Assembly: GCA_964418675.1 (NCBI GenBank)
Contig: CAYQMM010000002.1
Location: 196,875-260,874, forward strand
Direction: 5' to 3'
Source of the DNA: an uncultured Candidatus Bathyarchaeia archaeon
Lineage (GTDB): Archaea; Thermoproteota; Bathyarchaeia; Bathyarchaeales; Bathyarchaeaceae
Length of the DNA: 64,000 bases
The translations under genes and the position numbers were made by a program. Below, piece by piece: positions 6,549 through 29,635 of this stretch. The notes beneath the pieces were generated by a model. The model saw nothing but the letters and a program-made list of their open reading frames with translations, did no database searches and was not told the origin of the DNA. Numbering within the stretch: the first letter of the stretch is position 1; each line of letters starts with the position of its first letter.

Positions 6549-7846
6549 GAATTGTAACCGCTCAAGAATTCAAAAAGGAACTGCTTAACCAAGTGACGAA
6601 CAGGGGAAAATCTGACCTATCCACGATCTATTCTTCGGTTATACCGATAATAGATGATGTCAGAGAAAAGGGTGACAAAGCCCTTCTGAAATATACGGAA
6701 AAGTTCGACAAAGTGCGCCTTCCCCCATCAAAGCTCAAAGTTGACGAGAGGGAGATAAAAGAGGCATACAAAAAACTGGAAAAAAATCAGATCAGCGCTT
6801 TAAGGAAAGCCGCAGATAACATCGTAAGTTTCCACAAGAAACAGGTCAGAGACAAGTGGACCATGGAGATTGCGGAGGGCGTAACCGTTGGGCAGGTTAC
6901 TCGACCCCTATCGTCTGTTGGTGTCTACGTTCCCGGAGGAAGAGCATCCTATCCTTCTTCGGTGCTGATGTGTGCCATCCCAGCACGAGTAGCTGGAGTC
7001 GAAAAGACCATTATATGTTCACCACCGGGAAAGGGTGGAGACGTTAATCCGGCGCTTTTGGTGGCTGCCGACATAGCTGGAGTAACGGAGATTTATCGTG
7101 TTGGGGGAGCCCAAGCCATAGCCGCCATGGCTTACGGCACAGAAATAGTGCCAAAAGTAGACAAGATTGTGGGTCCGGGAAACGTTTTTGTGACAGCCGC
7201 GAAACTGGAGGTAAGCAAGGACGTTGCTATTGACGTTCCAGCTGGTCCAAGCGAGGTTTTGATAATCGCTGATGAGAGTGGCAAGGCTTCCTTTATTGCT
7301 TCGGACCTCCTTGCCCAAACAGAACACGACCCCCAAGCATGGGCGATTCTCCTCACCACATCCGAAGCTTTAGCGTCAGCGGTTAAAGAAGAGGTTAACA
7401 GGCAGATGAAGTCCCTCTCCAGAACAGAAGTCATAAAGTCCTCCATCCAAAAAGGAGGGCTAATAGTGGTCGTTAGGAACATCGAAGAGGCAATAGAATA
7501 CGCAAATCTGATAGCTCCTGAACACCTACAAATCCAAACCAAGGCTCCCACCGAAGTCTTCAACAAGATTCGAAACGCCGGAGCAGTCTTTCTGGGCGGT
7601 TACTCGCCAGTGGCTTTTGGCGATTACTCCTCCGGATTGAATCACGTCCTTCCCACCAGAGGCTATGCACGATTTTACTCCGGTCTTTCAACGTTAGATT
7701 TTGTTAAGACAATAAACTTTCTCCAGTGCAGTAGAGCGGGCTACGAGACGCTGAAGGAGACAGCAGTTACCCTCGCAAAGATGGAGGGCTTCGACGGACA
7801 CGCAAAATCAGTCGCAATAAGAGAGGATGAAAAAGATGAAAATTGA
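6545..7846 (+). CDS. hisD: Histidinol dehydrogenase
   Basis: 433 aa. Motifs VGVYVPGGRASYPSSVLM, QTEHDP, GDYSSGLNHVLPT. 4-nt overlap with hisG. Confidence 0.92.
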   Translation: MRIVTAQEFKKELLNQVTNRGKSDLSTIYSSVIPIIDDVREKGDKALLKYTEKFDKVRLPPSKLKVDEREIKEAYKKLEKNQISALRKAADNIVSFHKKQVRDKWTMEIAEGVTVGQVTRPLSSVGVYVPGGRASYPSSVLMCAIPARVAGVEKTIICSPPGKGGDVNPALLVAADIAGVTEIYRVGGAQAIAAMAYGTEIVPKVDKIVGPGNVFVTAAKLEVSKDVAIDVPAGPSEVLIIADESGKASFIASDLLAQTEHDPQAWAILLTTSEALASAVKEEVNRQMKSLSRTEVIKSSIQKGGLIVVVRNIEEAIEYANLIAPEHLQIQTKAPTEVFNKIRNAGAVFLGGYSPVAFGDYSSGLNHVLPTRGYARFYSGLSTLDFVKTINFLQCSRAGYETLKETAVTLAKMEGFDGHAKSVAIREDEKDEN

Positions 7847-18265: not shown

Positions 18266-18850
18266 CTAGGTTTGCGTCTTTATTGGTTTGAAGGATCGGA
18301 GACCAATAAATCGGGGCACGTTCTTACAATACTCTTCGTATGGTTTTCCATATTGTTGCCGTAGCCAAGGCTCTTCGCTAAAAGGAAGTATCACAAACAC
18401 AGCCACAACAATGGTTCCTGTGACTAAAGCCATGAATGAGCTTGTGGCAAGAATTACTCCCGCATACAGAAGAATGAAACCCACATATTGCGGATTTCGC
18501 GTAAACCGATACGGACCAGCCGTCACCAGTTTTCCCTTCAAACCAAGGCTCTGATGTGTACTCAAGGTTAGGGTTCCCCAATAGGCAAAGCTGCCTCCTA
18601 TCAGAATCATCAAACCCCCAATCAAAAAGCGAGACCAATGGGCATAACCTAACGTCTCCAAGTCGAGGATTCCAACTAATGGCACCCCACCCATGCCAAT
18701 CGCCGAAAGGACCCAGCTGACCCAGAACTGCCACGAATTCTTTCTTGGAGGTGGCCAGATACGAAATTTTGGAAAAAGCGCGCTGACGGCAACCCCGAGG
18801 AGCAGCAGGAGATTTACTGAAAGAACAACAGCAAATAACGCGAATTTCAT
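18266..18850 (-). CDS. Second ICMT/PEMT-family membrane methyltransferase paralogue
   Basis: 194 aa, polytopic. FTRNPQYVGFILLY and EEPWLRQQYGKPYEEY motifs. Convergent with the previous gene. Confidence 0.65.
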   Translation of the reverse strand: MKFALFAVVLSVNLLLLLGVAVSALFPKFRIWPPPRKNSWQFWVSWVLSAIGMGGVPLVGILDLETLGYAHWSRFLIGGLMILIGGSFAYWGTLTLSTHQSLGLKGKLVTAGPYRFTRNPQYVGFILLYAGVILATSSFMALVTGTIVVAVFVILPFSEEPWLRQQYGKPYEEYCKNVPRFIGLRSFKPIKTQT

Positions 18851-18925
18851 GGCTCTATTTTAGTGTATACACGGCTTAAAAGCATTGTATGCAACATAAG
18901 CTGCGCTTGTTAGACAAGTTAGTTA

Positions 18926-19915
18926 TTAGATTCGAAGCAGTTCTATCTCTTCATCACTTGCTGCACTGGCTGCTAGGGTCTTCACCTTTTCGGCTACATA
19001 TTTAACATCCACTTCGACGCCTTCTGCAGCATCGGAGTATCTGACAGTGATCTCCGCAGCCTTCTTAACCACCTTATCTGGGCATCCGTCTTCTAACACA
19101 GTTATCGGACCCATGTAACCAACAACCTCTAGATAGGGTCGCTTTCTTTGTCTAGCAATGGACAATAAGCGGTTATTCTCCTCTTCGTTTCTTCCCACAA
19201 CAATTTTGCAGCCATCAACCCTGAAGTGCCTGCCAATTCTCAAGAGCGATATATCATCTATTTCTAGGCGCTCGTTATGCTTCAGGAACTCCCTGAGTCT
19301 ATCAGCGAACCGTGGGTCAGTCAGCAGACATCCTCCCGACGGACAAGGATAATCGTTAATTCCCCACTCTTTAGCCAGGCTCATCTGTGGCAATCTTCGC
19401 CTGCCACGAATCGAAAAGAGCTTCTCCCTATCTACCAGCCCACTTTTCTCAGCCTCTGTTTCTGGTAATAGTTTGGCTGATAGAGGTCTCAGAATCTCTC
19501 CCTCCATTCCCGCCTCCTTTTCTATGCGTTCCATAGACCTCTTAGTTTGGGAGAAAGGTCTTTCATCCAGAACCTCCCCGGTTACGACACATTCTGCCCC
19601 AATTTTCTGTGCCAGCTCCTTGGCTTTTCTCAGCATCAATATTCTGCAGTCGATACAGGGGTTCATCCGGCTTCCATAGCCATGGGGAGGATCTGTCACC
19701 AAATCCAAGTATTCTTTGCCCAGAAAGACTGTGTGAGCCTTTATTCCAAACTTTTTCACCGCAGATTCTGCTGCACACTTGTCGCAAAGACAAAAAGGAG
19801 TGGTAAAAATGGCTGCCTCCACATCCACACCCTGCTCAAGCATTGCTTTAACAGCTAATGTGCTGTCTAAGCCACCGGAGAGCAGGACCAGCACTTTTCT
19901 ATTCTTCTCAGTCAA
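18926..19915 (-). CDS. PP-loop ATPase, ThiI/MnmA-like sulfurtransferase without a THUMP domain
   Basis: 329 aa. LLSGGLDST PP-loop, NPCIDCRILM, CPSGGCLLTD. Last gene of the sulfur array. Confidence 0.65.
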   Translation of the reverse strand: MTEKNRKVLVLLSGGLDSTLAVKAMLEQGVDVEAAIFTTPFCLCDKCAAESAVKKFGIKAHTVFLGKEYLDLVTDPPHGYGSRMNPCIDCRILMLRKAKELAQKIGAECVVTGEVLDERPFSQTKRSMERIEKEAGMEGEILRPLSAKLLPETEAEKSGLVDREKLFSIRGRRRLPQMSLAKEWGINDYPCPSGGCLLTDPRFADRLREFLKHNERLEIDDISLLRIGRHFRVDGCKIVVGRNEEENNRLLSIARQRKRPYLEVVGYMGPITVLEDGCPDKVVKKAAEITVRYSDAAEGVEVDVKYVAEKVKTLAASAASDEEIELLRI

Positions 19916-19964
19916 TACCCTGTCACCAACATGAACGAAGAACCGTTTCTTGGAGGTTCCAGAT

Positions 19965-21080
19965 TCACGAGATTAATTTTTCAGAGATGCCAAGCCCATC
20001 CACAAGTGTTTCGCGGAAAAAGTTTAGGGCTTCCTGCTTTTCTTTGAGGCCTTCTACGATCATGACTCCGCTTTTAAGAATGCTGGCGGAGACTTCTTGA
20101 TCTTTGTCAAAGGTTAAGCCGAGGGAAGCGCTGATTTTTACTTTGAAACCGTTTTTCTTGAGATAGGGTTGTAATTCAGCTAGGTTAATTTGGAGATTCT
20201 TTCTTGGGATGATGACGAAGACTTTTTTTCCGCTTCTTCCACAGATTTCTTCAACGAGCTCTCGTTTAAGAGGCATAGGAGAATCTTGAGGTTTTGAGCC
20301 GCAGACTGGGCATTCGTCAACTTTTGAGAGGCGAATTTCGTTGAATTCCATATGTTCTAGGTCAACGTGGAAGAGCCTGTTGGCTAAAAGAGGCTGCTTT
20401 CCTGTAAGTATCCTAATGGCTTCACTGACTTCCAAGCTTGCTATTATACTCAGCAATGATGGATGAACTCCCACCACTCCGCATTTGGGTAGCTTGTCAT
20501 CTTCGAGGTTGCCGTAGAAGCATTCGAGGCATGCTGTTTTTCCCGGGATTATCGTAGAGACGTTGCCTGTGGTTGTTATTGCGGCTGCAAAAATGTAGGG
20601 TATGCCAAGTTTGACGCATGCTCGGTTAATGGCGTAGCGGGGTGTCATGCTGTCTAAGCAGTCAATCACCACATCCATGCCCTTTACTATTTCTTCAGCG
20701 TTGTCCTCTGTTATGTAGAGGGGAAGAGGCTCTATTTCGATGTAAGGATTCAATCTATGCAACTTCTTGGCGGCAACCTCAACCTTTGGGTATCCCACGT
20801 CATCAACTCCGTAGAGGTGCTGCCTATGCAGATTAGCTAATTCCACAACATCCCTGTCAACGAGACGCAAATGTCCAACTCCAATCGCGGCTAATTGAGT
20901 CACAGCTGGAGAGCCTAATCCACCCAAACCCAGCAGGCAAGCCTTGGAGTTTTTAAGTTTCAATTGGGCGCTGTATCCCAGTTCAGCCAGAACAATCTGT
21001 CTTGAATAATATTCCATTTCCTCGCGGGAAAGGTCTGCCTCATTTTGTTTGGTTTTTTTTGTCTCGCTGGTGGGGGTCAT
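19965..21080 (-). CDS. ThiF/MoeB/UbaA-family E1-like adenylyltransferase with an extra ~110-aa C-terminal domain
   Basis: 371 aa. YSRQIVLAELG, GLGGLGSP nucleotide loop, two CxxC pairs (CLEC, CPVC). Confidence 0.85.
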   Translation of the reverse strand: MTPTSETKKTKQNEADLSREEMEYYSRQIVLAELGYSAQLKLKNSKACLLGLGGLGSPAVTQLAAIGVGHLRLVDRDVVELANLHRQHLYGVDDVGYPKVEVAAKKLHRLNPYIEIEPLPLYITEDNAEEIVKGMDVVIDCLDSMTPRYAINRACVKLGIPYIFAAAITTTGNVSTIIPGKTACLECFYGNLEDDKLPKCGVVGVHPSLLSIIASLEVSEAIRILTGKQPLLANRLFHVDLEHMEFNEIRLSKVDECPVCGSKPQDSPMPLKRELVEEICGRSGKKVFVIIPRKNLQINLAELQPYLKKNGFKVKISASLGLTFDKDQEVSASILKSGVMIVEGLKEKQEALNFFRETLVDGLGISEKLIS

Positions 21081-21087
21081 TTAAGTT

Positions 21088-21366
21088 TTAGCCTCCGACT
21101 ACTGCCGGAAGAATCAACACTTCGTCCCCATCGTTGAGTGGAGTGTTGAGCTTCTTAAGGAAGCGGATATCTTTACCGTTTATATAGATTCTGATATGCC
21201 TTCTCGGATTTCCTGCGCTATCAAGTATCTTTGTCTTGAACTCTTCACCGTGTTCCTCAATCAAAGAGTCAAGAACCTCCTTCAACGAAGAGCCTTCTGC
21301 CCCCACTTCCTTCTTTCCCAAGGCTGTAGCTAAAGTTGCGAAAACCCGTAAAGTTACTTTCGCCAC
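21088..21366 (-). CDS. MoaD/ThiS-family ubiquitin-like sulfur-carrier protein ending in Gly-Gly
   Basis: 92 aa. The C-terminus is ...DEVLILPAVVGG followed directly by the stop. Overlaps the ThrC-like gene by 13 nt and lies 7 nt upstream of the E1 gene. Confidence 0.85.
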   Translation of the reverse strand: MAKVTLRVFATLATALGKKEVGAEGSSLKEVLDSLIEEHGEEFKTKILDSAGNPRRHIRIYINGKDIRFLKKLNTPLNDGDEVLILPAVVGG

Positions 21367-22613
21367 TTCAACTCCTCCAAGTTAAAGGCTTTCGCAAAGG
21401 ACTTTAGGTTGGGTTCAATTTCAACTGGTTTCGGGATATGAGGCAGAACCGCTTCGGTTGCTTTCAATCCATTACCTGTCACGTAGCATACAACCTTTTC
21501 ATCTGGTGAAATGTCTCCGCTTTCAACTAGCTTCTTCAGAACCGCTATGGTTACGCCGCCTGCTGGTTCCGTGAATATTCCTTCGGTCTTCGCTAAAAGT
21601 TTAATTGCGTCCACCACCTCAGCGTCTGTGGCGGATTCTGCTGTTCCCCCCGATTGGCGTATGGTTTCAACGGCGTGAACTCCATCGCCTGGGTCTCCTA
21701 CAGCCAAGCTTTTCGCGATGGTATCTGGGTATTCGATTGGGGTGACATCGGTGGAGTTGGATTTGAAGGCGTTTACTACAGGGGCGCATCCTGAGGGCTG
21801 AGCGCCGGACACCCTGATTTTTGTGTCTTCGATTAGGTTGAGTTTCTTGAATTGGTTGAATCCTCGTTGGATGGCGCAGAGCAGGGCTCCGCTGCCCATC
21901 GGCACTACCACATGGTCTGGGTTTTCCCATCTAAGTTGCTCACATACTTCGAAGGCTAAGGTTTTTGAGCCTTCAACGTAGTAGGGGCGTACGTTGATGT
22001 TGGCAAAAGCCCAGTCATAGATTTCTGCGGCTTGGGCGGCGAGCCTGTTAGCGTCATCGTAGGTTCCTTTTACAGCCACTATTTTGGCTCCGTAGATTGA
22101 AGCTTGAACAATCTTGTTAGGTTCTATGTCAGCAGGGATAAATACGTAACATGGCAGTCCCGCTTTGGCTGCGTGGGCGGCTACGGCGGCGGCTAAGTTA
22201 CCAGTTGATGCGGCTCCGAAGGCTTTGGAGTTAAATTCCACGGCTTTGGATGCTGCTACTGTGGCTGGGCGGTCCTTGAAGGAGTATGTTGGGTTGACGC
22301 TGTCGTCTTTGGCGTATAGCGTTTTCAATCCAAGGGCTTTGGCTAGCCTGTTACATTTATGCAGGATTGTATAGCCTGCGCCTAGGTCCACGATTTTCGT
22401 TTTGTCCTGTACTGGTAGCAGTTCGAAGTATCGCCAAACTGTGTTTGGTCTGTTATGGAATGATTTTCTGTCTAGTTCTATGGAGTTGAAGTTGTATGTT
22501 ACTTCTAAGGGTCCAAAACATTCTTCGCAAACATAGGTTTTGGTGGGCGGATATTCTCTGCCGCATTGCCTACATTTGAGGGATTTTATGTGGTTGAGTT
22601 TCGAGACCTCCAT
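21354..22613 (-). CDS. Threonine synthase-family PLP enzyme with an N-terminal zinc ribbon (possibly a thiocarboxylate-dependent homocysteine synthase)
   Basis: 419 aa. CRQCGREY...CEECFG ribbon and SFKDRPA PLP-lysine motif. Confidence 0.8.
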   Translation of the reverse strand: MEVSKLNHIKSLKCRQCGREYPPTKTYVCEECFGPLEVTYNFNSIELDRKSFHNRPNTVWRYFELLPVQDKTKIVDLGAGYTILHKCNRLAKALGLKTLYAKDDSVNPTYSFKDRPATVAASKAVEFNSKAFGAASTGNLAAAVAAHAAKAGLPCYVFIPADIEPNKIVQASIYGAKIVAVKGTYDDANRLAAQAAEIYDWAFANINVRPYYVEGSKTLAFEVCEQLRWENPDHVVVPMGSGALLCAIQRGFNQFKKLNLIEDTKIRVSGAQPSGCAPVVNAFKSNSTDVTPIEYPDTIAKSLAVGDPGDGVHAVETIRQSGGTAESATDAEVVDAIKLLAKTEGIFTEPAGGVTIAVLKKLVESGDISPDEKVVCYVTGNGLKATEAVLPHIPKPVEIEPNLKSFAKAFNLEELKWRK

Positions 22614-22711
22614 TAGTGTTTTAACGATTTGGATGTTATTCTCTTATTAATATCTTCTTGATAGTTTTATTCCCATCGGAATATCAGCTCTCAGAACCAC
22701 CACAGCCTGTT

Positions 22712-23479
22712 TCATTGAAGAACCCTGAACAGCATGTATATGCTGAGCAATATCACTCCAAATCCCACAAGTTGCCCGAATTTTCTTCGTGTACCACAAT
22801 GCACCAATCTTTTGCAGAGCAACACTGCAATGGGGGCAGAAATCAAGCCACCTACTATCAACGCAGCAACCAGACTCCAATCAAAGCCGCTAGGACCCAA
22901 AAGAATGAAGAAAGTTGAGGCTATCGCTACAGTTACAAAAAACCTTGCGAAGTTCACAGAACCAACAACTTCTCGGGGGTCATTATGGTTCAAAATCAGC
23001 GTGGGTGTAACTATTGGACCCCATCCTCCGCCGCCCATGGCATCCAAAAAGGCTCCCATAAACCCTAATGCAAGAAGCGTTCTGGTAGACTTTTTTTTCA
23101 CCTTGATGTGGATACCGTCGAATGTGAATCTGTAGAGGACAAGGCACCCCAGCGCAAGAAGTATGACACCCACTAGGACTCTTAGCGGGGTAATTGGCGT
23201 GAAAATAAGCCCATATGCACCTATAATTCCTCCTATGCAGCCAGATACTACGAGAGGCAGAACAATTTCCCGTTTGACATTGCCTATCTTGAAGTGGGCG
23301 ACACCTGAGATGAGAGAGGTGAAAATTCCAGATGTATGTACGCTTGAGCTGGCAATAGCGGGGATTACGCCGAAGGAGAGGAGGAAAGTTGTTGATGTGA
23401 CTCCATAGCCCATGCCTATTGAGCCGTTGATGAATTGCGCCAAGAACCCAATTATGGCGTAAATAAAGAATAGATACAA
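22712..23479 (-). CDS. TSUP (TauE/SafE) family anion permease
   Basis: 255 aa, about 8 TM segments, Gly-rich repeats (GGGGWGPIVTP). Confidence 0.7.
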   Translation of the reverse strand: MYLFFIYAIIGFLAQFINGSIGMGYGVTSTTFLLSFGVIPAIASSSVHTSGIFTSLISGVAHFKIGNVKREIVLPLVVSGCIGGIIGAYGLIFTPITPLRVLVGVILLALGCLVLYRFTFDGIHIKVKKKSTRTLLALGFMGAFLDAMGGGGWGPIVTPTLILNHNDPREVVGSVNFARFFVTVAIASTFFILLGPSGFDWSLVAALIVGGLISAPIAVLLCKRLVHCGTRRKFGQLVGFGVILLSIYMLFRVLQ

Positions 23480-23497
23480 ATTGGTGACCCTTTGGGT

Positions 23498-24658
23498 CTA
23501 CACGAGTAGACCAGTGTATTTTCTCAGTATCTTGGCGATTTCTGGGCGCATCATCTCCGGTGGAGGCAGCTCACCGTTTTTGAGCATCTCTCTTAAAGCC
23601 GTCATGCTTATTCTGATGTGATTCTCGATGATGTGCCCGCAAGTCTTGTCTGTAGCTACAAGGCGGCATTGTTTACAGAAGAAGGATTCTCTGAACAAGA
23701 TTGGTTCTATGCCCAAATCCAGTTTTTTGAAGGCTTCATGGGCTGAGTAGGGACCGTAATAGTTTCCTACACCTGCTATGTCTCTGCCTACCACGAAGTG
23801 TGTGCAGCCGTAGTTTTTTCTGATGATTGCTAGGAAGATTGCGGCTTTTGGTCCTGCATACCTCATGGATAACGATAGGGTGGCTAAGACGGCGCGGTCC
23901 TTGGGATAATAGTTCTGTGTAAGGTACTCGTAGGCTTCCATTATTGCATCTGGTGGAAAGTCCCCTTTCTTCAGCTTTCCAATAACAGGGTGGATGAAGA
24001 GTCCATCAACCATTTCTAGGGCGCATCTCTGAAGATATTCGTGGACCATGTGCGGCGGGTTTCTGGTCTGGTACGCCGCGATTGATTTCCATCCTCGTTC
24101 TTCAAAGATTCTTCGGGTTTCGGAGGGCGTTAGTTCGTATTTTGCAGCGGGAAAGTCTACGTGCTGGATGAGGTTGATTTCTCCGCCGACTAACGTCTCT
24201 CCGTTCTTGTATAGTTCGCTAACGTTGGGGTGTTGGGGGTCAGTTGTTCCAAAGGTCTGCTTTGCAAGTTCTTTTTTGTCGTACTTGAATTTCTCCTGTA
24301 CATGGAGTATGGCAATGGGTTTTTCGGTGTAAAAGAGGGCGATGTCCTCGCCTTCCTTTATTGTCTTTAGTGTTTCGTGATTTCTTTTTCCGTTGGGGGC
24401 AAGTATGATTGGTATCGTCCATGGGAGTCCATTTGTCAGTTGCCCTTCATGCACTACGTTTGTGTAGTCTTCTTTTGTCATGAATCCTTCTAGGGGACTG
24501 AATGCTCCTACCGCGATTTTGTCAGCATCCAAGATTGATTCTGTGTTAACATCTAATCTGGGCAGCTCCTCCGCTTCTTTGAGTGCCGCTTCTATATTAT
24601 CACTAGCTATGACTCGGTTGACGAGTTTTCCTCCGTGGGGTTTTGGTAAGCCGCTCAT
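23498..24658 (-). CDS. sat: Sulfate adenylyltransferase (ATP sulfurylase)
   Basis: 386 aa. QTRNPPHMVHEYL (QxRNPxHxxH). VVGRDIAGVG sits where GRDHAG is usual. Confidence 0.88.
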   Translation of the reverse strand: MSGLPKPHGGKLVNRVIASDNIEAALKEAEELPRLDVNTESILDADKIAVGAFSPLEGFMTKEDYTNVVHEGQLTNGLPWTIPIILAPNGKRNHETLKTIKEGEDIALFYTEKPIAILHVQEKFKYDKKELAKQTFGTTDPQHPNVSELYKNGETLVGGEINLIQHVDFPAAKYELTPSETRRIFEERGWKSIAAYQTRNPPHMVHEYLQRCALEMVDGLFIHPVIGKLKKGDFPPDAIMEAYEYLTQNYYPKDRAVLATLSLSMRYAGPKAAIFLAIIRKNYGCTHFVVGRDIAGVGNYYGPYSAHEAFKKLDLGIEPILFRESFFCKQCRLVATDKTCGHIIENHIRISMTALREMLKNGELPPPEMMRPEIAKILRKYTGLLV

Positions 24659-24661
24659 CTT

Positions 24662-25411
24662 TCACGCTTCCTTTTGGTGAGGGTGCAGTCCGCACTCTTT
24701 GGTGAGGTCTATTTCCCACCACCATCTTCCAGCCCTGAGGTCTTCTCCCGGTTTGATTGCTCTGGTGCAAGGTTCGCAGCCTATGCTGGGAAAACACTTG
24801 TCATGTAACTTGTTGTATGGAAGTTTCTCTGCCTTGACGTAGTCCCAAACTTGCTCGTTTGTCCAATCGGCTAGAGGGTTAATCTTGATTATTCCATCGT
24901 TGAAATGGTCAACTTCAACTTTCTGGATGTCTGCTCTTGAAACGTTCTGTAATCTTCTTAGACCCGTAATCCATGCGTCAAGCCCTTTAAGCGCTCTTTT
25001 CAGCGGCTCTATCTTCCGTACTTGGCAGCAGAGCTTACGCAATTCTGGGCTTGTGTAAAACAGGTTCACGCCATGCTCTCTCACCATCTTCTCCGCGGAG
25101 GCGGCATCTGGATAGTACACTTCGATTTTGAGGTTGTATTTTCGTCTAACATCATCGATTAGCTCGTATGTCTCTTGATTGAGGCGTCCCGTATCTAGAG
25201 TGAAGATTATGATGTCTGGGTTAATTTTTTGAAGCATGTCAATGAGCACGACGTCTTCTGCGCCGAAGCTGGATGCGAAGGCGATCTTGGGATAAAACGT
25301 CTCTGCAGCCCACTCTAAAACTTTTTCAGCTTTTTTTCCTTCGAGTTGTGCTGCGATTTTCTTTACATCGTTTTCGTTTGGTGTCATTTTTGTGTCTCCT
25401 TCTTGATCCAT
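24662..25411 (-). CDS. cysH: Assimilatory adenylylsulfate (APS) reductase, CysH family with Fe-S cysteines
   Basis: 249 aa. CC (KLCCQVRK) plus CEPC cysteines, and C-terminal KECGLH. Confidence 0.85.
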   Translation of the reverse strand: MDQEGDTKMTPNENDVKKIAAQLEGKKAEKVLEWAAETFYPKIAFASSFGAEDVVLIDMLQKINPDIIIFTLDTGRLNQETYELIDDVRRKYNLKIEVYYPDAASAEKMVREHGVNLFYTSPELRKLCCQVRKIEPLKRALKGLDAWITGLRRLQNVSRADIQKVEVDHFNDGIIKINPLADWTNEQVWDYVKAEKLPYNKLHDKCFPSIGCEPCTRAIKPGEDLRAGRWWWEIDLTKECGLHPHQKEA

Positions 25412-25415
25412 CTGC

Positions 25416-25430
25416 TATAACACTGTTATG
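25416..25430. promoter_or_regulatory. Palindromic operator candidate P1: TATAACACTGTTATG
   Basis: 15-bp dyad (TATAAC-N3-GTTAT) 5 nt upstream of the cysH ATG. One of four near-identical sites. Confidence 0.55.
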
Positions 25431-25441
25431 ACCACATAGCC

Positions 25442-25456
25442 TATAACACCGTTATA
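25442..25456. promoter_or_regulatory. Palindromic operator candidate P2: TATAACACCGTTATA, overlapping the likely cysH TATA box
   Basis: Perfect 6-bp arms. Centre is 26 bp from the P1 centre. Adjacent to an AAGCTTTTCGCC BRE-like string on the minus strand. Confidence 0.55.
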
Positions 25457-25585
25457 AGCTTTTCGCCGAAACAACAACCATTCTCAAAACGTTCAAACAA
25501 GTGCAAAAACTTCAAAGCCTTCTGAGGGAAAGATGGACGGAAAAAACGTAATGTTTATATCCTTTGTTGCTAGGTGTAAAATAAC

Positions 25586-25600
25586 TATTACAGTGTTATG
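25586..25600. promoter_or_regulatory. Palindromic operator candidate P3: TATTACAGTGTTATG (reverse complement CATAACACTGTAATA)
   Basis: Lies between an AT-rich TATA-like TAAAATAA (25576-25583) and the start of the CysM-like gene at 25618. Confidence 0.5.
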
Positions 25601-25617
25601 AGGGATATAGATGGCTG

Positions 25618-26661
25618 GTGGATATGTTTGTTCAACCCCAAAAATCTTCCTTAATATCAGTCGATTCTCTTCCATCTAGCTCTTACCTCAAAAAGATACA
25701 TCTTCTCAAACAGAAAATCGGAAAAACCCCACTTGTACACATAGATAACGTCAACGGCAGCTCCATCTACGCAAAACTCGAATATTACAACCCTTTAAGC
25801 CACTCCGTTAAAGACAGAGCAGCAATATACATGCTGGAAGGAGCAATAAAGCAGGGTCTAGTAACATCCGAAAACAGCGTCTTCGTTGAAGCCTCTTCAG
25901 GAAATCTTGGAATCGCCTACGGAAAAGCTGGCAGCTTCTTAGGTCTAAAAACATTAATTGTGATACCGAGCGTTGTCGGCAAAAAAACCTTTGAAAGAAT
26001 AATCGAGGCGGGAGCAACGGTTGAAAAAACCCCAGACGGTTACTGCCCAAGAAGAAACGAACGAGACGGCGCCATAGCAAAAGTCAAGGACATGTACCTT
26101 GATGATCCAAAAAAGATATGGCTAGACCAATACAGCAACCAAGACAACCTGAGAGCCCATATGGAAGGAACAGGACCTGAAATCTGGAACCAAACCGACG
26201 GAAAACTAACAAACATCGTTCTGGGAGTCGGCACAGGCGGGTCAATTGTAGGCATAACCCGTTACCTGAAGGTAGAGAATCCTGAATTGGAAAGTATAGC
26301 GGTTCAGCCCCAAGAAAACCATCACATCCAAGGATTAAGGAACTTCCAAGAATCCTTAGAGCCAACTCTAATCAGAAAAAACAGGGACTTAATTGACAAT
26401 TGGAGTGAAGTCAGCGATAAAGAAAGCTTTGAAGCTACAAAGTACCTGTGGAGAAGAGGCTATCTCGTAGGCACATCATCAGGACTAAACTACTTCGCCG
26501 CAAGAAAGATAGCAAAGGAAAACCAAGGCTCAACCATAGTTACACTCTTCCCAGACACATGCCTCAACTCCTTCAAAGTGATGCAAAAACACATTCTAAA
26601 CGGTGACCTCACAAAACACGGAAAGAGAGAGTTACCCCATGAAATCAGAAAACAAGACTAA
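25618..26661 (+). CDS. Cysteine synthase-family (CysK/CysM-like) PLP enzyme
   Basis: 347 aa. HSVKDRAA PLP-lysine, SSGNLGIAYG, GVGTGGSIVG, GTSSGLN. Confidence 0.8.
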   Translation: MDMFVQPQKSSLISVDSLPSSSYLKKIHLLKQKIGKTPLVHIDNVNGSSIYAKLEYYNPLSHSVKDRAAIYMLEGAIKQGLVTSENSVFVEASSGNLGIAYGKAGSFLGLKTLIVIPSVVGKKTFERIIEAGATVEKTPDGYCPRRNERDGAIAKVKDMYLDDPKKIWLDQYSNQDNLRAHMEGTGPEIWNQTDGKLTNIVLGVGTGGSIVGITRYLKVENPELESIAVQPQENHHIQGLRNFQESLEPTLIRKNRDLIDNWSEVSDKESFEATKYLWRRGYLVGTSSGLNYFAARKIAKENQGSTIVTLFPDTCLNSFKVMQKHILNGDLTKHGKRELPHEIRKQD

Positions 26662-26708
26662 CCTAAACAGGAATATTAACTTAATAAAACACCACAACCC
26701 ATCAGAAG

Positions 26709-28256
26709 GTGAAGTCATACCCAAGAGATGAAACAATCTTGGCAAAGATAGAAACAGCAGACATAGAACGGTTCATGGGTCGATTCTCTATTGGACGCGA
26801 CAGCAATCCCATGAATCCAACAGGCTCCCTCCACTTCTTAAGACTAAAAGTCCCCGGAGGCTTCTTAACCACCAAACAGTTTCGGGGAGTAGCTGAGTTA
26901 GCTGAAGAATACGGTAGATCACGGGCGGAGATAACTGACAGACAGGACATACAGCTTCACTGGATAGACGCTGCAGATGCCCTAGAAATCTTTTCAAAAA
27001 TGGATGAACTAGGGTTCACCACAGACATGTGCGGACAGAGCTTTGGCGGCGCAAGATATGGAGACGCAAGAAACATCGTGCTTTGTCCAGCCTCCGGAAT
27101 CGAAAAAGATGAGTTGCTGAATGGCTACCCCCTCATGAACGAGCTAAGCAACTTTCTAATTGGAAACCCTGATTTCCAAGACATGCCCCGAAAATTCAAG
27201 TTTTCAATATCAGGATGCGGGTCTGACTGTACACGAGCAGCAACAAATGATCTTTCCTTTGTAGCTGTCAAAAAGAATGATGAAATAGGATACACCACGT
27301 TGCTGGGAGGCAGCATGGGCGCATCGCTGCCCGGTCCCAGATTAGCCAAGCCATCTGGCATGTTTTTGAAGCCTGAGGACGCATTCAATGTAGCAATCGC
27401 CACTATCGAAATTCACCGGGACAATGGAAACAGAGAGACCAAGGCTAAGGCACGGTTTAAGTGGCTCCTTGAAGAGTGGGGCATCGAAAAGTTCCGGAAT
27501 GCGTTAGAAAGCAAACTTGGACGACCCCTTGAAAGCTACGCTGGTCCCGCTTTCACCAAATATGAGGGGCACGATGGGGTGCAACCACAGAAGCAGAGAG
27601 GCTACTATTACGTGAATCTTCCCCTCATTGGCGGCGCTTTATCTGCTGAACAGATGTTTTCTCTTGCGGACCTTGCCGACGAATATGGAAGCGGTGAACT
27701 GAGGCTAACATGCACACAGAACCTTATCTTACCCAACATTAAGAAGAAGGAACCAGTTCTGAAGCGCTTAGAAGCATTAGGTTTTTTCCTTCAAGGTTCC
27801 AAGTTACGCTGGACCAGCATGGGATGTGCTTCAAATTTTTGCGGGAAGACCAAGAGCCCTCACGCCAAGGAAATCTTTAGAGAGGTTGTGGAGTTCCTTG
27901 AGAGCAGTTTCGCTAAGGAGGTTCTGGCGGAGGCAAAGTTTCGGATACATGCCAGTGGCTGTCTCAACAACTGTTGCGCGAATCTCATAGCTGAAGTAGG
28001 TTTGCGTGGCAGGCTCCTTAGGGATGAAGAGAAACTGAAACAGGGCTATGATATAATGCTACTTGAAAAATGCGAACAAGAACAATGTTTCGGAAGTGTC
28101 ATTGAGGGGTCTGTTCCTGCGGCGGATGTGAAGTACAAGCTCAAGGCTCTTTTATCAAATTACTTGAAACACAGAAAACCGACCGAGGACCTGAGGCAGT
28201 TCTGCAAAAGACATACAACAGAAGAACTGAGGAAGTATCTGGAGGGTGAAGTATGA
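26709..28256 (+). CDS. sir: Assimilatory sulfite (nitrite/sulfite family) reductase, siroheme/4Fe-4S type
   Basis: 515 aa with a GTG start. Internally duplicated NiR/SiR fold with cysteine clusters (GCASNFCG ... SGCLNNCC). Confidence 0.8.
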   Translation: MKSYPRDETILAKIETADIERFMGRFSIGRDSNPMNPTGSLHFLRLKVPGGFLTTKQFRGVAELAEEYGRSRAEITDRQDIQLHWIDAADALEIFSKMDELGFTTDMCGQSFGGARYGDARNIVLCPASGIEKDELLNGYPLMNELSNFLIGNPDFQDMPRKFKFSISGCGSDCTRAATNDLSFVAVKKNDEIGYTTLLGGSMGASLPGPRLAKPSGMFLKPEDAFNVAIATIEIHRDNGNRETKAKARFKWLLEEWGIEKFRNALESKLGRPLESYAGPAFTKYEGHDGVQPQKQRGYYYVNLPLIGGALSAEQMFSLADLADEYGSGELRLTCTQNLILPNIKKKEPVLKRLEALGFFLQGSKLRWTSMGCASNFCGKTKSPHAKEIFREVVEFLESSFAKEVLAEAKFRIHASGCLNNCCANLIAEVGLRGRLLRDEEKLKQGYDIMLLEKCEQEQCFGSVIEGSVPAADVKYKLKALLSNYLKHRKPTEDLRQFCKRHTTEELRKYLEGEV

Positions 28257-28510
28257 GCAAAAAATTTGAATTGGAAAAGATTGGTGAAAAACGTTATTCT
28301 CTGGATGTTCGCGGCTCCGTATGTCCCTATCCCCAAATATTGACGTTACGTGCCCTCAACAGCCTTTCTTCAGATGGCATTCTTGAGGTGATTCTTGACA
28401 ATCCCCCATCCGTCCGGGACATCCCTCCTGTTCTGAAAGAAAAGAAATACATGGTCGAAGTGTCAGACGTAGCCAAGGGAACATGGAAAATAATCGTAAG
28501 CCGCAAGTAA
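28253..28510 (+). CDS. tusA: TusA/SirA-like sulfur-relay protein
   Basis: 85 aa. LDVRGSVCPYPQILT (CPxP active-site motif). ATGA overlap with the sir stop. Confidence 0.8.
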   Translation: MSKKFELEKIGEKRYSLDVRGSVCPYPQILTLRALNSLSSDGILEVILDNPPSVRDIPPVLKEKKYMVEVSDVAKGTWKIIVSRK

Positions 28511-28579
28511 CGGCTACACTGCATTTATAAGCCGATTCCATGTTGCATACAACCAATTGAAGCCTCGGCTGGATGAAGA

Positions 28580-29635
28580 ATGAGTTGGGAGAAAACCTTA
28601 GACAGTTATGGCGCGGTAATTGAGGAGCATCTCAAAAAATTTTTGGCGGAAACCTTGAAAGAAGCGGGAGCTTACCATCCCTTCATTGCGAGGGTTTACT
28701 CTGATCTTGAAGAGTTTGTGCTTAGGAAGGGCAAGAGGTTGGCTTCCTGCAGCACGCTCCTCACATACAAAGGTTACAGCGGAAAGGTGGATGACAAAAT
28801 CTTAGATGTCTGTGTCGGAATCGAGCTGTACCGCCACGCCATTCTGGTTCACGACGATCTAGTTGACATGGACGATCTCAGGAGAGGAGGAAGTACACTG
28901 CACAAAAAATTCATGAAGAGCTACGACCCCTACACACCCCGGTTTGGGGAGGGAACTGCCATCTTCGCTGGCAACATCGCATATTCCTTGGCGCTCAAAT
29001 CTATAATCGATTCTGGTTTTCCTGAAGAGAAAATTGGCAAAGTGTTATCTCTCCTTTCTGAGGGTTACAGGGATGTCAATGAGAGCCAAATCCTCGATTT
29101 GCTATTCGAGTTTAAGGATGTGGATGTTAACGAATGGATGGTTATGGCGGCTAAGAGGGCTGCTTCCCTCTTCAAGGTTACAATGCTGGCTGGCGCAGTC
29201 CTAGGCGGCACCCCAGAGAAGGATCATTCTATTTTGGGTGAAGCAGCAGAGAACATGGGCTACTCCTTCGACATTCAAGACGACATCATCGACAGCTTCG
29301 CCCCTGAAGACAAGTATGGTCGACCTCCATGCGTGGACATCGCCACAGGCAAGAAACCTCTTCACGTAATTTATGCCCTCAACTCGGCAGACAAGGAGAA
29401 ATCTGAAGCTTTAAGGTGTCTTCTTGGAAAGAAAAATCTCAACCATGGAGAGATAGAGTTGGTGAGAACGGTGCTTAGGGAGAGCGGAGGATTAGAAGCC
29501 GCAAAGAAAACATCAAGGAAACATGCTGAAGAGGCGAAAGTGCTCCTCACTCAAACAAGCCTGAGTGATGAAGTTAAAGAGTTTTTTAAAAGCTTCGTTT
29601 CATACATAGAGGAAAGCCTAGACTGGTACAAATAG
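28580..29635 (+). CDS. Polyprenyl (geranylgeranyl) diphosphate synthase
   Basis: 351 aa. First Asp-rich motif HDDLVDMDDLRRG and second FDIQDDIID. Confidence 0.85.
   Translation: MSWEKTLDSYGAVIEEHLKKFLAETLKEAGAYHPFIARVYSDLEEFVLRKGKRLASCSTLLTYKGYSGKVDDKILDVCVGIELYRHAILVHDDLVDMDDLRRGGSTLHKKFMKSYDPYTPRFGEGTAIFAGNIAYSLALKSIIDSGFPEEKIGKVLSLLSEGYRDVNESQILDLLFEFKDVDVNEWMVMAAKRAASLFKVTMLAGAVLGGTPEKDHSILGEAAENMGYSFDIQDDIIDSFAPEDKYGRPPCVDIATGKKPLHVIYALNSADKEKSEALRCLLGKKNLNHGEIELVRTVLRESGGLEAAKKTSRKHAEEAKVLLTQTSLSDEVKEFFKSFVSYIEESLDWYK

Follow-up and report, generated by a model that had tools for sequence, protein, structure and literature searches.

A gene pair with overlapping ends

The stretch of DNA under discussion (the window) comprises 64,000 nucleotides (nt) of contig CAYQMM010000002.1 (positions 196,875 to 260,874), which belongs to a 2.04-Mb Bathyarchaeia assembly (GCA_964418675.1) of an uncultured Candidatus Bathyarchaeia archaeon, and our concern here is with two genes on its reverse strand whose ends overlap. 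One encodes a pyridoxal phosphate (PLP) enzyme of 419 amino acids (aa) that resembles threonine synthase (ThrC), and the other a protein of 92 aa with the MoaD/ThiS fold and a Gly-Gly (GG) terminus. From their sequences and surroundings we think that the former is probably an archaeal ThrC-like enzyme of the MetM lineage and the latter a MetO-like sulfur carrier, a reading to which we would give a probability of about 0.7. The features that define the pair, numbered from the first letter of the window, are as follows.

21354..22613, minus strand: putative MetM-like PLP enzyme of 419 aa, a paralogue within the ThrC family (begins with ATG, ends with TAA at 21356-21354; from the open reading frame listing and the raw sequence), predicted to be a MoaD-thiocarboxylate-dependent homocysteine synthase with O-phosphohomoserine as substrate
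22518..22574, minus strand: N-terminal C4 zinc ribbon of the enzyme (C14, C17, C29, C32; CRQC-x11-CEEC)
22275..22277, minus strand: codon of the predicted PLP Schiff-base lysine K113 (SFKDR begins at residue 111 and aligns with all solved ThrCs)
21088..21366, minus strand: putative MetO-like sulfur-carrier protein, MoaD/ThiS fold, 92 aa (GTG start at 21366-21364; ends ...LILPAVVGG)
21354..21378, minus strand: coupling junction (GGAGGAG at 21378-21372, carrier GTG at 21366-21364, enzyme TAA at 21356-21354)

The initial annotation of the window had singled out this pair, and the open reading frames, the sequence and the Pfam matches confirm what it described: a ThrC-like and a GG-terminated MoaD-like product of these lengths, from genes that share exactly 13 nt (21354-21366). 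A Shine-Dalgarno-like GGAGGAG lies 5 nt 5' of the carrier's GTG, within the 3' end of the enzyme gene, and this internal motif, together with the overlap, would couple the synthesis of enzyme and carrier. Residues 76-380 of the enzyme match the PALP domain (254.8 bits, Pfam), and K113 is flanked by NPTYSFKDRP where canonical ThrCs have NPTGSFKDRG. The zinc ribbon to which attention had also been drawn is real, residues 13-37 matching a NinF-type ribbon in Pfam, but it is not diagnostic: we tried it as a marker of the MetM-like clade and had to reject it, since a ribbon also occurs in most other clades, the third paralogue clade described below among them, and in 8 of 15 canonical sequences, namely every archaeal one whose N-terminus is complete.

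The carrier scores 61.2 bits with the Pfam ThiS model, 59.6 bits with moaD_arch of NCBIfam and 62.3 bits with SAMP1 (NF041918), the last being marginal to a cut-off of 60; the gene context favours a sulfur-carrier role over that of a SAMP1-type modifier. Its sequence stops exactly at GG, and C-terminal trimming is unneeded.

Standing among threonine synthases and MetM homologues

The system with which the pair has to be compared is that of Streptomyces albulus. According to the part of PMC13759103 that relays Hasebe et al. (2024, AEM 90:e0124724), MetM of this organism is a ThrC homologue, "often misannotated", that turns O-phosphohomoserine into homocysteine; the relevant portions of the same paper and of preprint appendix 4 name the thiocarboxylate of the carrier MetO as the sulfur donor and involve MoeZ and Mec as well, and the passages of PMC12172450 on these genes place a S-adenosylmethionine (SAM) riboswitch upstream of metM, with metO adjacent. 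The window likewise holds a ThrC-homologous PLP enzyme beside a GG-terminated carrier of the MoaD/ThiS fold, and the enzyme likewise attracts the wrong name of threonine synthase. A tblastn search of PLSDB with the window protein found a homologue of 46.9% identity on an 11.85-Mb replicon of Nonomuraea gerenzanensis (locus L062), where a SAM riboswitch (RF00162, 68.7 bits) is followed by a zinc-ribbon ThrC-like gene and, 25 nt downstream of the latter, a 91-aa MoaD-like gene ending in AVAGG. This is the metM-metO arrangement reported for S. albulus. With the Nonomuraea protein as query, homologues came up in Nonomuraea and Streptosporangiaceae (Streptosporangiales) only, and of the five MoaD-like paralogues of the archaeal genome the window carrier most resembles the MetO-like protein of Nonomuraea (36% identity, 62 bits).

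Three ThrC homologues of the genome exceed the TIGR00260 cut-off, namely the window gene and two others that we call own_B (C2:85927-87297) and own_C (C1:267488-268756). Trees were built from the window orthologues, the best 50%-identity cluster representatives of a library of 1.84 billion proteins, five solved ThrCs (PDB 2zsj, 6cgq, 1uim, 2d1f and 1e5x, their sequences taken from alignments), own_B, own_C and the actinomycete homologue, and FastTree (152 sequences), a quick IQ-TREE run and a careful one (71 sequences, LG+C20+F+G4) all agree. In the careful analysis the archaeal window clade and the MetM-like clade together occupy one side of a branch with an ultrafast bootstrap of 100 and an SH-aLRT of 99, while own_B and ten archaeal thrC loci join the five solved ThrCs in another group with the same 100/99 values and own_C falls into a third. 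The initial annotation had named clustering with housekeeping ThrC as the outcome that would speak against its proposal; the protein instead groups, at 100/99, with SAM-riboswitch-controlled actinomycete metM-like genes. Members of the sister clade include a Micromonosporaceae protein; on a Thermoplasmatota contig the operon reads ThrC-like, ThiS and homoserine dehydrogenase, a Euryarchaeota contig adds a GHMP kinase to the same three, and two further contigs have a ThiS neighbour. For P0143, a long-branch member, no ThiS neighbour was found on its short contig. Another protein, P0127, had been a candidate for the published Microcystis enzyme and was dropped, its termini not matching the residues quoted in the paper on that enzyme.

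The active-site comparison proposed in the initial annotation turned out to be informative. In an L-INS-i alignment with a canonical set of 15 sequences, ten positions at which canonical ThrC varies little or not at all are replaced alike in the MetM-like and the window clade, and the canonical residues are retained by own_B and by the canonical ThrCs of archaea.

Thermus ThrC residue to window residue: G64 to P116, T88 to L140, S155 to I206, N157 to R209, R160 to Y212, Q164 to S216, N188 to S241, N191 to L244, A240 to S302, W249 to G311

We take T88, S155, R160 and N188 of the Thermus enzyme to bind the substrate and product phosphate that steers water addition. If this is correct, the phosphate-retaining pocket of ThrC would appear to have been rebuilt, with an arginine shifted to position 157, and such a pocket fits an enzyme that admits a protein C-terminus at C-gamma; T88 to L, S155 to I, R160 to Y, N188 to S, N191 to L and the new arginine in place of N157 are changes that fit a shift in reaction specificity. 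The window enzyme thus shares with canonical ThrC its fold, the PLP-lysine motif and the presumed substrate O-phosphohomoserine, and differs from it in belonging to a separate 100/99 clade, in the ten replaced residues and in its link to a sulfur-carrier gene. As for own_C, which encodes 422 aa on the plus strand, it shows a third pattern at these positions (S, A, S, N, Q, P, S, L, G, G), and its neighbours are aminotransferase, 2-hydroxyacid dehydrogenase, enolase-like and carbamate kinase genes, with no MoaD gene beside it.

Might the window gene nevertheless be a working threonine synthase, possibly a bifunctional synthase/deaminase, with its SAMP/MoaD neighbour incidental? We regard this as very unlikely, although it is what the model libraries say. 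The enzyme clears the thrC equivalog cut-offs of NCBIfam (TIGR00260, 300.9 bits against 167.1; PRK08197, 313 bits against 303), true ThrCs head its PDB matches (bacterial structures at 38-40% identity, Arabidopsis 1e5x at 32%), the carrier is marginally above the SAMP1 cut-off and the E1 enzyme encoded next to it is shared genome-wide, and a cyanobacterial MetM homologue, from Microcystis, is reported to act in vitro as both threonine synthase and threonine deaminase (PMC12172450). However, the riboswitch-linked Nonomuraea protein passes TIGR00260 too (270.1 bits against 167.1), so this cut-off does not discriminate, and in own_B the genome has a homologue with the canonical residue at each of the ten positions, placed in the tree with the solved ThrCs, for which reason the window gene is unneeded for threonine. 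The same gene is missing from four congeners, all ten of the ThrC-invariant residues examined are replaced in its product, and linkage to a carrier is kept across phyla and is specific to the window clade. More generally, the threonine synthase 'equivalog' models TIGR00260 and NF006050 are passed, or nearly passed, by MetM-like proteins; NCBIfam release 20 holds no MetM-specific model, and every homologue that we encountered is named threonine synthase. An assignment to the CysM type was also considered and rejected, on profile scores and PDB neighbours.

Conservation and the surrounding sulfur genes

We sought orthologues of the enzyme in 151 Bathyarchaeia genomes at an identity of at least 51%, and examined 36 orthologue loci in Bathyarchaeia, Hadarchaeota and Nitrosopumilaceae. 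About 20 of the 151 genomes have the gene, and none of four genomes of the same genus does, so that the module is best described as accessory. Where the enzyme occurs, its partner is rarely far away: in 33 of the 36 loci a MoaD-like gene (23 standalone carriers, almost all ending in GG) or a MoaD-E1 fusion (10) lies directly downstream, and the three unlinked loci have an internal stop in the gene, a truncated gene and a contig end, respectively. Neither MoaD nor E1 adjoins the gene at any of ten archaeal thrC loci of the canonical type. The spacing is conserved as well, being -13 nt in six loci of different families and phyla, Hadarchaeota included (the arrangement is seen in L019, L026, L029, L047 and L052), and -11 to +32 nt in the others; because the 13-nt overlap recurs in such distant loci, the tight junction is no accident of a single genome, and the moaD link on whose conservation the initial annotation had made its proposal depend is indeed conserved. 

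The fusions, of about 445 aa, come from Nitrosopumilaceae (L053-L061) and one Bathyarchaeia genome (G010, locus L019), the junction reading ...PAVAGG followed by S..., and in such proteins a free GG end would require proteolytic release; for Thaumarchaeota, a Ubl-E1-TBP architecture is listed by Makarova and Koonin (2010). In L051 the carrier (6973-7260) ends ...VSGGGD, two residues beyond GG, and would need JAMM-type trimming as in MetO maturation.

The genes around the pair, most of them identified with Pfam and NCBIfam, are these.

19965..21080, minus strand: E1-like adenylyltransferase of the ThiF/MoeB family, 371 aa, starting 7 nt past the carrier stop
18926..19915, minus strand: ThiI-like PP-loop ATPase with NFACT-R_2 as its C-terminal domain, at the end of the array (Pfam and NCBIfam)
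22712-23479, minus strand: TauE/SafE-family permease, upstream and co-directional (Pfam and NCBIfam)
23498-24658, minus strand: ATP sulfurylase Sat, upstream and co-directional (Pfam and NCBIfam)
24662-25411, minus strand: APS/PAPS reductase CysH, upstream and co-directional (Pfam and NCBIfam)
25618..26661, plus strand: divergent PLP enzyme of the CysK/CysM/CBS family, 347 aa (PALP, 184 bits)
26709-28256, plus strand: assimilatory sulfite reductase (Pfam and NCBIfam)
28253-28510, plus strand: TusA/SirA-like protein, its gene overlapping that of the sulfite reductase (Pfam and NCBIfam)

In many orthologue loci an E1 follows the carrier or is fused to it. The window E1 has a ThiF domain at residues 25-259 (247 bits, Pfam) and no rhodanese domain; it carries a C-terminal extension of about 110 aa, and a Pfam scan of the C-terminal 119 residues gave no match. 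It is the single E1 homologue among the open reading frames of the genome, which also encodes five GG-ending MoaD/ThiS-like proteins (C2:217962-218240, which is the window copy, C1:173739-174125, C1:217652-217939, C3:208337-208630 and C2:53775-54062), and since it is shared with four other such proteins its position is no proof of dedication to the module; presumably it also serves molybdenum cofactor (MoCo), tRNA-thiolation or SAMP functions. The PP-loop ATPase was considered as a further member and rejected, as no homologue stands beside E1 in L046-L061, and it probably lies outside the conserved module.

As to the company of E1 and sulfate-reduction genes, which had been part of the original case for the pair, it is present here and is matched by a statistical association across the class, but sulfate genes adjoin only part of the clade and are absent in a relative whose enzyme is 90% identical. 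That relative, Candidatus Bathyarchaeum sp. (L047, CP070820.1), is the closest named one, and its locus shares a syntenic core with the window (IleRS, prenyl synthase, CysK/M-like, enzyme, carrier, E1 and his operon), the CysK/M-like gene directly facing the enzyme-carrier-E1 operon; it is without Sat, CysH, TauE, Sir and TusA, and cysH-sat-tauE, sir-tusA and the PP-loop gene are extra in the window genome, which suggests that sulfate-reduction genes are gained or lost as cassettes. A gene after the enzyme-carrier-E1 trio of Hadarchaeota locus L052 (2505-3725) resembles cysteine desulfurases by sequence motif, and cysteine would then be the candidate sulfur source at that locus. Since the former locus has no sulfate genes and the latter a desulfurase-like one, we see enzyme, carrier and E1 as the conserved core and the source of sulfur as variable. 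Across the class, 8 of the 20 module-bearing genomes have sulfite reductase, against 2 of the other 131 (odds ratio 43, Fisher p = 8.7e-7, without correction for phylogeny), and in three other genomes (G048, G053 and G028) the two share a contig at a distance of 3-8 kb.

These associations also bear on the idea that the small protein is not a sulfur donor at all and is instead a ubiquitin-like modifier or a regulatory subunit of the PLP enzyme, acting by SAMPylation or allosterically. Its resemblance to SAMP1 speaks for this, as do the Nitrosopumilaceae fusions, in which GG is not a free end; however, the module is tied statistically and physically to sulfite reductase, to TusA and to the desulfurase-like gene of Hadarchaeota, all of which point to sulfur transfer, and the characterised homologous system, in the portion of PMC13759103 that deals with it, employs its carrier as a thiocarboxylate. 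We therefore hold the modifier or subunit role to be highly improbable.

The window has a precedent in the gene-neighbourhood class 4e of Iyer et al. 2006 (PMC1779556), which combines ThiS/MoaD with an E1 always without rhodanese, SirA/TusA always present and sulfate-reduction genes. The whole set (ThiS/MoaD, rhodanese-less E1, SirA/TusA, ATP sulfurylase, (P)APS reductase and sulfite reductase) lies within 18926-28510, but in place of the O-acetylhomoserine sulfhydrylase of class 4e (PMC1779556) there is the ThrC-like enzyme, and no JAB gene is found in the window. Compared with S. albulus, the archaeal pair falls into the same 100/99 group and has the same ten-residue signature as the metM-like gene under riboswitch control in the actinomycete; its genome encodes an E1 and, away from the cluster, JAMM proteases. 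It differs in its archaeal host, in lying within a sulfate-assimilation cluster, in having E1 in the same operon without the rhodanese domain of MoeZ and with a TusA-like protein instead, in a carrier that ends at GG and needs no Mec-type trimming, and in the lack of a SAM riboswitch, no riboswitch or other Rfam element being found within 18500-29000 at E <= 0.1.

Proposed chemistry and its place in metabolism

O-Phosphohomoserine, the substrate that MetM chemistry calls for, should be within reach of the organism, which carries the following gene pair outside the window.

C3:185641-186666 and C3:187079-188293: homoserine dehydrogenase and HomK

HomK/ThrB2 (TIGR02535, phosphoglycerate-mutase-like) scores 514.9 bits against a cut-off of 446.3 and adjoins the Homoserine_dh gene, and the function of HomK has been confirmed by complementation (GapMind 2026, PMC13759103). 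A canonical GHMP-type ThrB was not found in the genome, its three GHMP matches being shikimate, mevalonate and pantoate kinases. Because Hom and HomK are encoded, O-phosphohomoserine is available to both own_B and the window enzyme. An enzyme of the Cys_Met_Meta_PP family (MetY/MetZ/MetB/MetC) was not found in the genome, which likewise speaks for the MetM reading.

We can then picture the following sequence of events. Hom and the alternative homoserine kinase HomK would supply O-phosphohomoserine, while E1 would adenylate the C-terminal Gly-Gly of the carrier and sulfur would turn the resulting acyl-adenylate into a thiocarboxylate. At this locus the sulfur would come by way of the adjacent Sat, APS reductase and sulfite reductase, and the TusA-like protein possibly relays it, in place of the rhodanese domain that E1 is missing. 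The MetM-like enzyme would eliminate phosphate from PLP-bound O-phosphohomoserine, and whereas canonical ThrC adds water at C-beta, it would by analogy with S. albulus MetM take the carrier thiocarboxylate at C-gamma and yield homocysteine. Release may proceed through a carrier-homocysteine adduct hydrolysed by one of two JAB proteases encoded elsewhere in the genome. The proposal in the initial annotation that the pair is a candidate for MetM/MetO chemistry thus finds support in the tree, the signature, the linkage and the context, the chemistry itself being argued from homology and context.

Two better-known systems use a similar logic. In Wolinella succinogenes a protein-thiocarboxylate pathway to methionine reportedly operates with HcyS, HcyF, HcyD and MetY, and Krishnamoorthy and Begley are said to have described it in 2011. 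The window resembles that system in its carrier, rhodanese-less E1, SirA/TusA, sulfate-reduction genes and, if we are right, homocysteine-forming PLP enzyme, and differs in the enzyme itself, which is ThrC-like, of fold type II and expected to act on O-phosphohomoserine, whereas Wolinella MetY is a fold-type-I O-acetylhomoserine sulfhydrylase; the window block would thus join the cluster logic of Wolinella HcyS with the chemistry of Streptomyces MetM. In Mycobacterium tuberculosis, CysO, CysM, Mec+ and MoeZ make up a system in which a protein thiocarboxylate supplies sulfide to a PLP enzyme of fold type II whose substrate is an O-phospho amino acid. The logic of a thiocarboxylate donor is common to both, and a CysK/M-like gene stands at the window locus, but the enzyme that concerns us belongs to the ThrC and not the CysM branch, its expected acceptor is O-phosphohomoserine, and the CysK/M-like protein is not specifically close to M. 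tuberculosis CysM.

Several points count against the MetM reading. The archaeal members are known from sequence and context, and their chemistry is deduced by homology; there are also the two activities reported for the Microcystis homologue. MetM is represented in the tree by the Nonomuraea proxy, found by synteny and riboswitch, rather than by S. albulus MetM (UniProt A0A059WBP2), and it is with this proxy, not with A0A059WBP2 or MetO (A0A059W7F4), that the window enzyme shows only 47% identity. The assignment of T88, S155, R160 and N188 to the phosphate site, after structural papers on Thermus ThrC, is tentative. The sole E1 must serve four other MoaD-like proteins too, and a JAB protease was not found in the window cluster, the two Prok-JAB proteins of the genome (C3:204299-204706 and C16:26793-27173) being unlinked to it.

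Further difficulties concern methionine itself. The genome also has a complete HcyBio plus NIL-ferredoxin route to homocysteine, of the MA1821/1822 type, and the complementarity with HcyBio that one would expect of a sole source of homocysteine was not found: HcyBio occurs in 15 of the 20 Bathyarchaeia genomes with the module and in 63 of the 131 without it, so that the routes co-occur, and it is kept in all five genomes of the genus. The module is therefore not the sole route, and the two run in parallel, perhaps fed from different sulfur sources. The genome (G000) did not yield a methionine synthase domain of the MetE/Mes type (PF01717) or the MetH type (PF02574), and PF01717 was not found in two genomes of the same genus (G081 and G087), two of the same family (G071 and G120) or the Bathyarchaeum chromosome either. 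With no detectable methionine synthase, homocysteine in this lineage may feed a novel terminal step.

It is here that one might argue for the same carrier-thiocarboxylate logic with another substrate and product, such as the conversion of O-phosphoserine to cysteine (CysO/CysM-like, on a ThrC scaffold) or the formation of another thiol amino acid. The missing methionine synthase and the separate homocysteine route both favour such a change of substrate; the archaeal clade, moreover, is never seen beside hom or homK, its conserved neighbours being the carrier, E1 and, in Bathyarchaeum, the CysK/M-like gene, and ThrC paralogues that use O-phosphoserine are known, cysteate synthase being an example, to whose model TIGR03844 the window enzyme has a weak match of 93.7 bits. 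That score is far under the cut-off of 324.9, however, and cysteate synthase identity as such was rejected on this ground; the ten-residue signature is identical in the sister-clade operons with hom and GHMP kinase and in the actinomycete gene controlled by a SAM riboswitch, and the locus already has a CysK/M-like enzyme for cysteine. On balance we consider a different substrate unlikely.

Should the MetM reading be correct, its consequences would reach well beyond one contig. MetM/MetO was proven in 2024, in Streptomyces alone, and hidden Markov model libraries still label such proteins threonine synthase; a coherent archaeal clade of Bathyarchaeia, Hadarchaeota and ammonia-oxidising Nitrosopumilaceae, with relatives in Thermoplasmatota and Euryarchaeota, would then carry the enzyme-carrier pair, a systematic misannotation would be corrected and a step of the methionine pathway filled in uncultured archaea. 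The ten-residue signature would give a simple rule for separating MetM-like proteins from true ThrC, and with it a definite hypothesis of how evolution turned an enzyme of beta-hydration into a gamma-sulfhydrylase, and the link with sulfite reductase would suggest that the few Bathyarchaeia capable of sulfate reduction route sulfur via a protein thiocarboxylate.

There remains the CysK/M-like protein across the intergenic region, which scores 212 bits on the cysKM model, under the cut-off, and has generic cysteine synthase/CBS structures as its PDB matches. Its gene divergently adjoins the enzyme-carrier-E1 operon in L046 and L047 too. It is possible that this protein is a second user of the carrier thiocarboxylate, or else a sulfide-dependent cysteine synthase. 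The first option can be extended to the rather doubtful idea that cysteine and homocysteine both draw their sulfur from one protein thiocarboxylate as a shared currency: sulfide from sulfite reductase would be loaded on the carrier by E1 and the TusA-like protein and passed to the MetM-like enzyme for homocysteine and to the CysK/M-like enzyme for cysteine, so that assimilated sulfate would bypass free sulfide, HcyBio being kept for sulfide-rich conditions.

The region between cysH and the CysK/M-like gene contains three real TATAAC-N3-GTTATA-like palindromes, at 25416, 25442 and 25586, and one copy, beside the CysK/M-like start, is kept in the intergenic region between the CysK/M-like and MetM-like genes of relatives (L046/L047, 5814).

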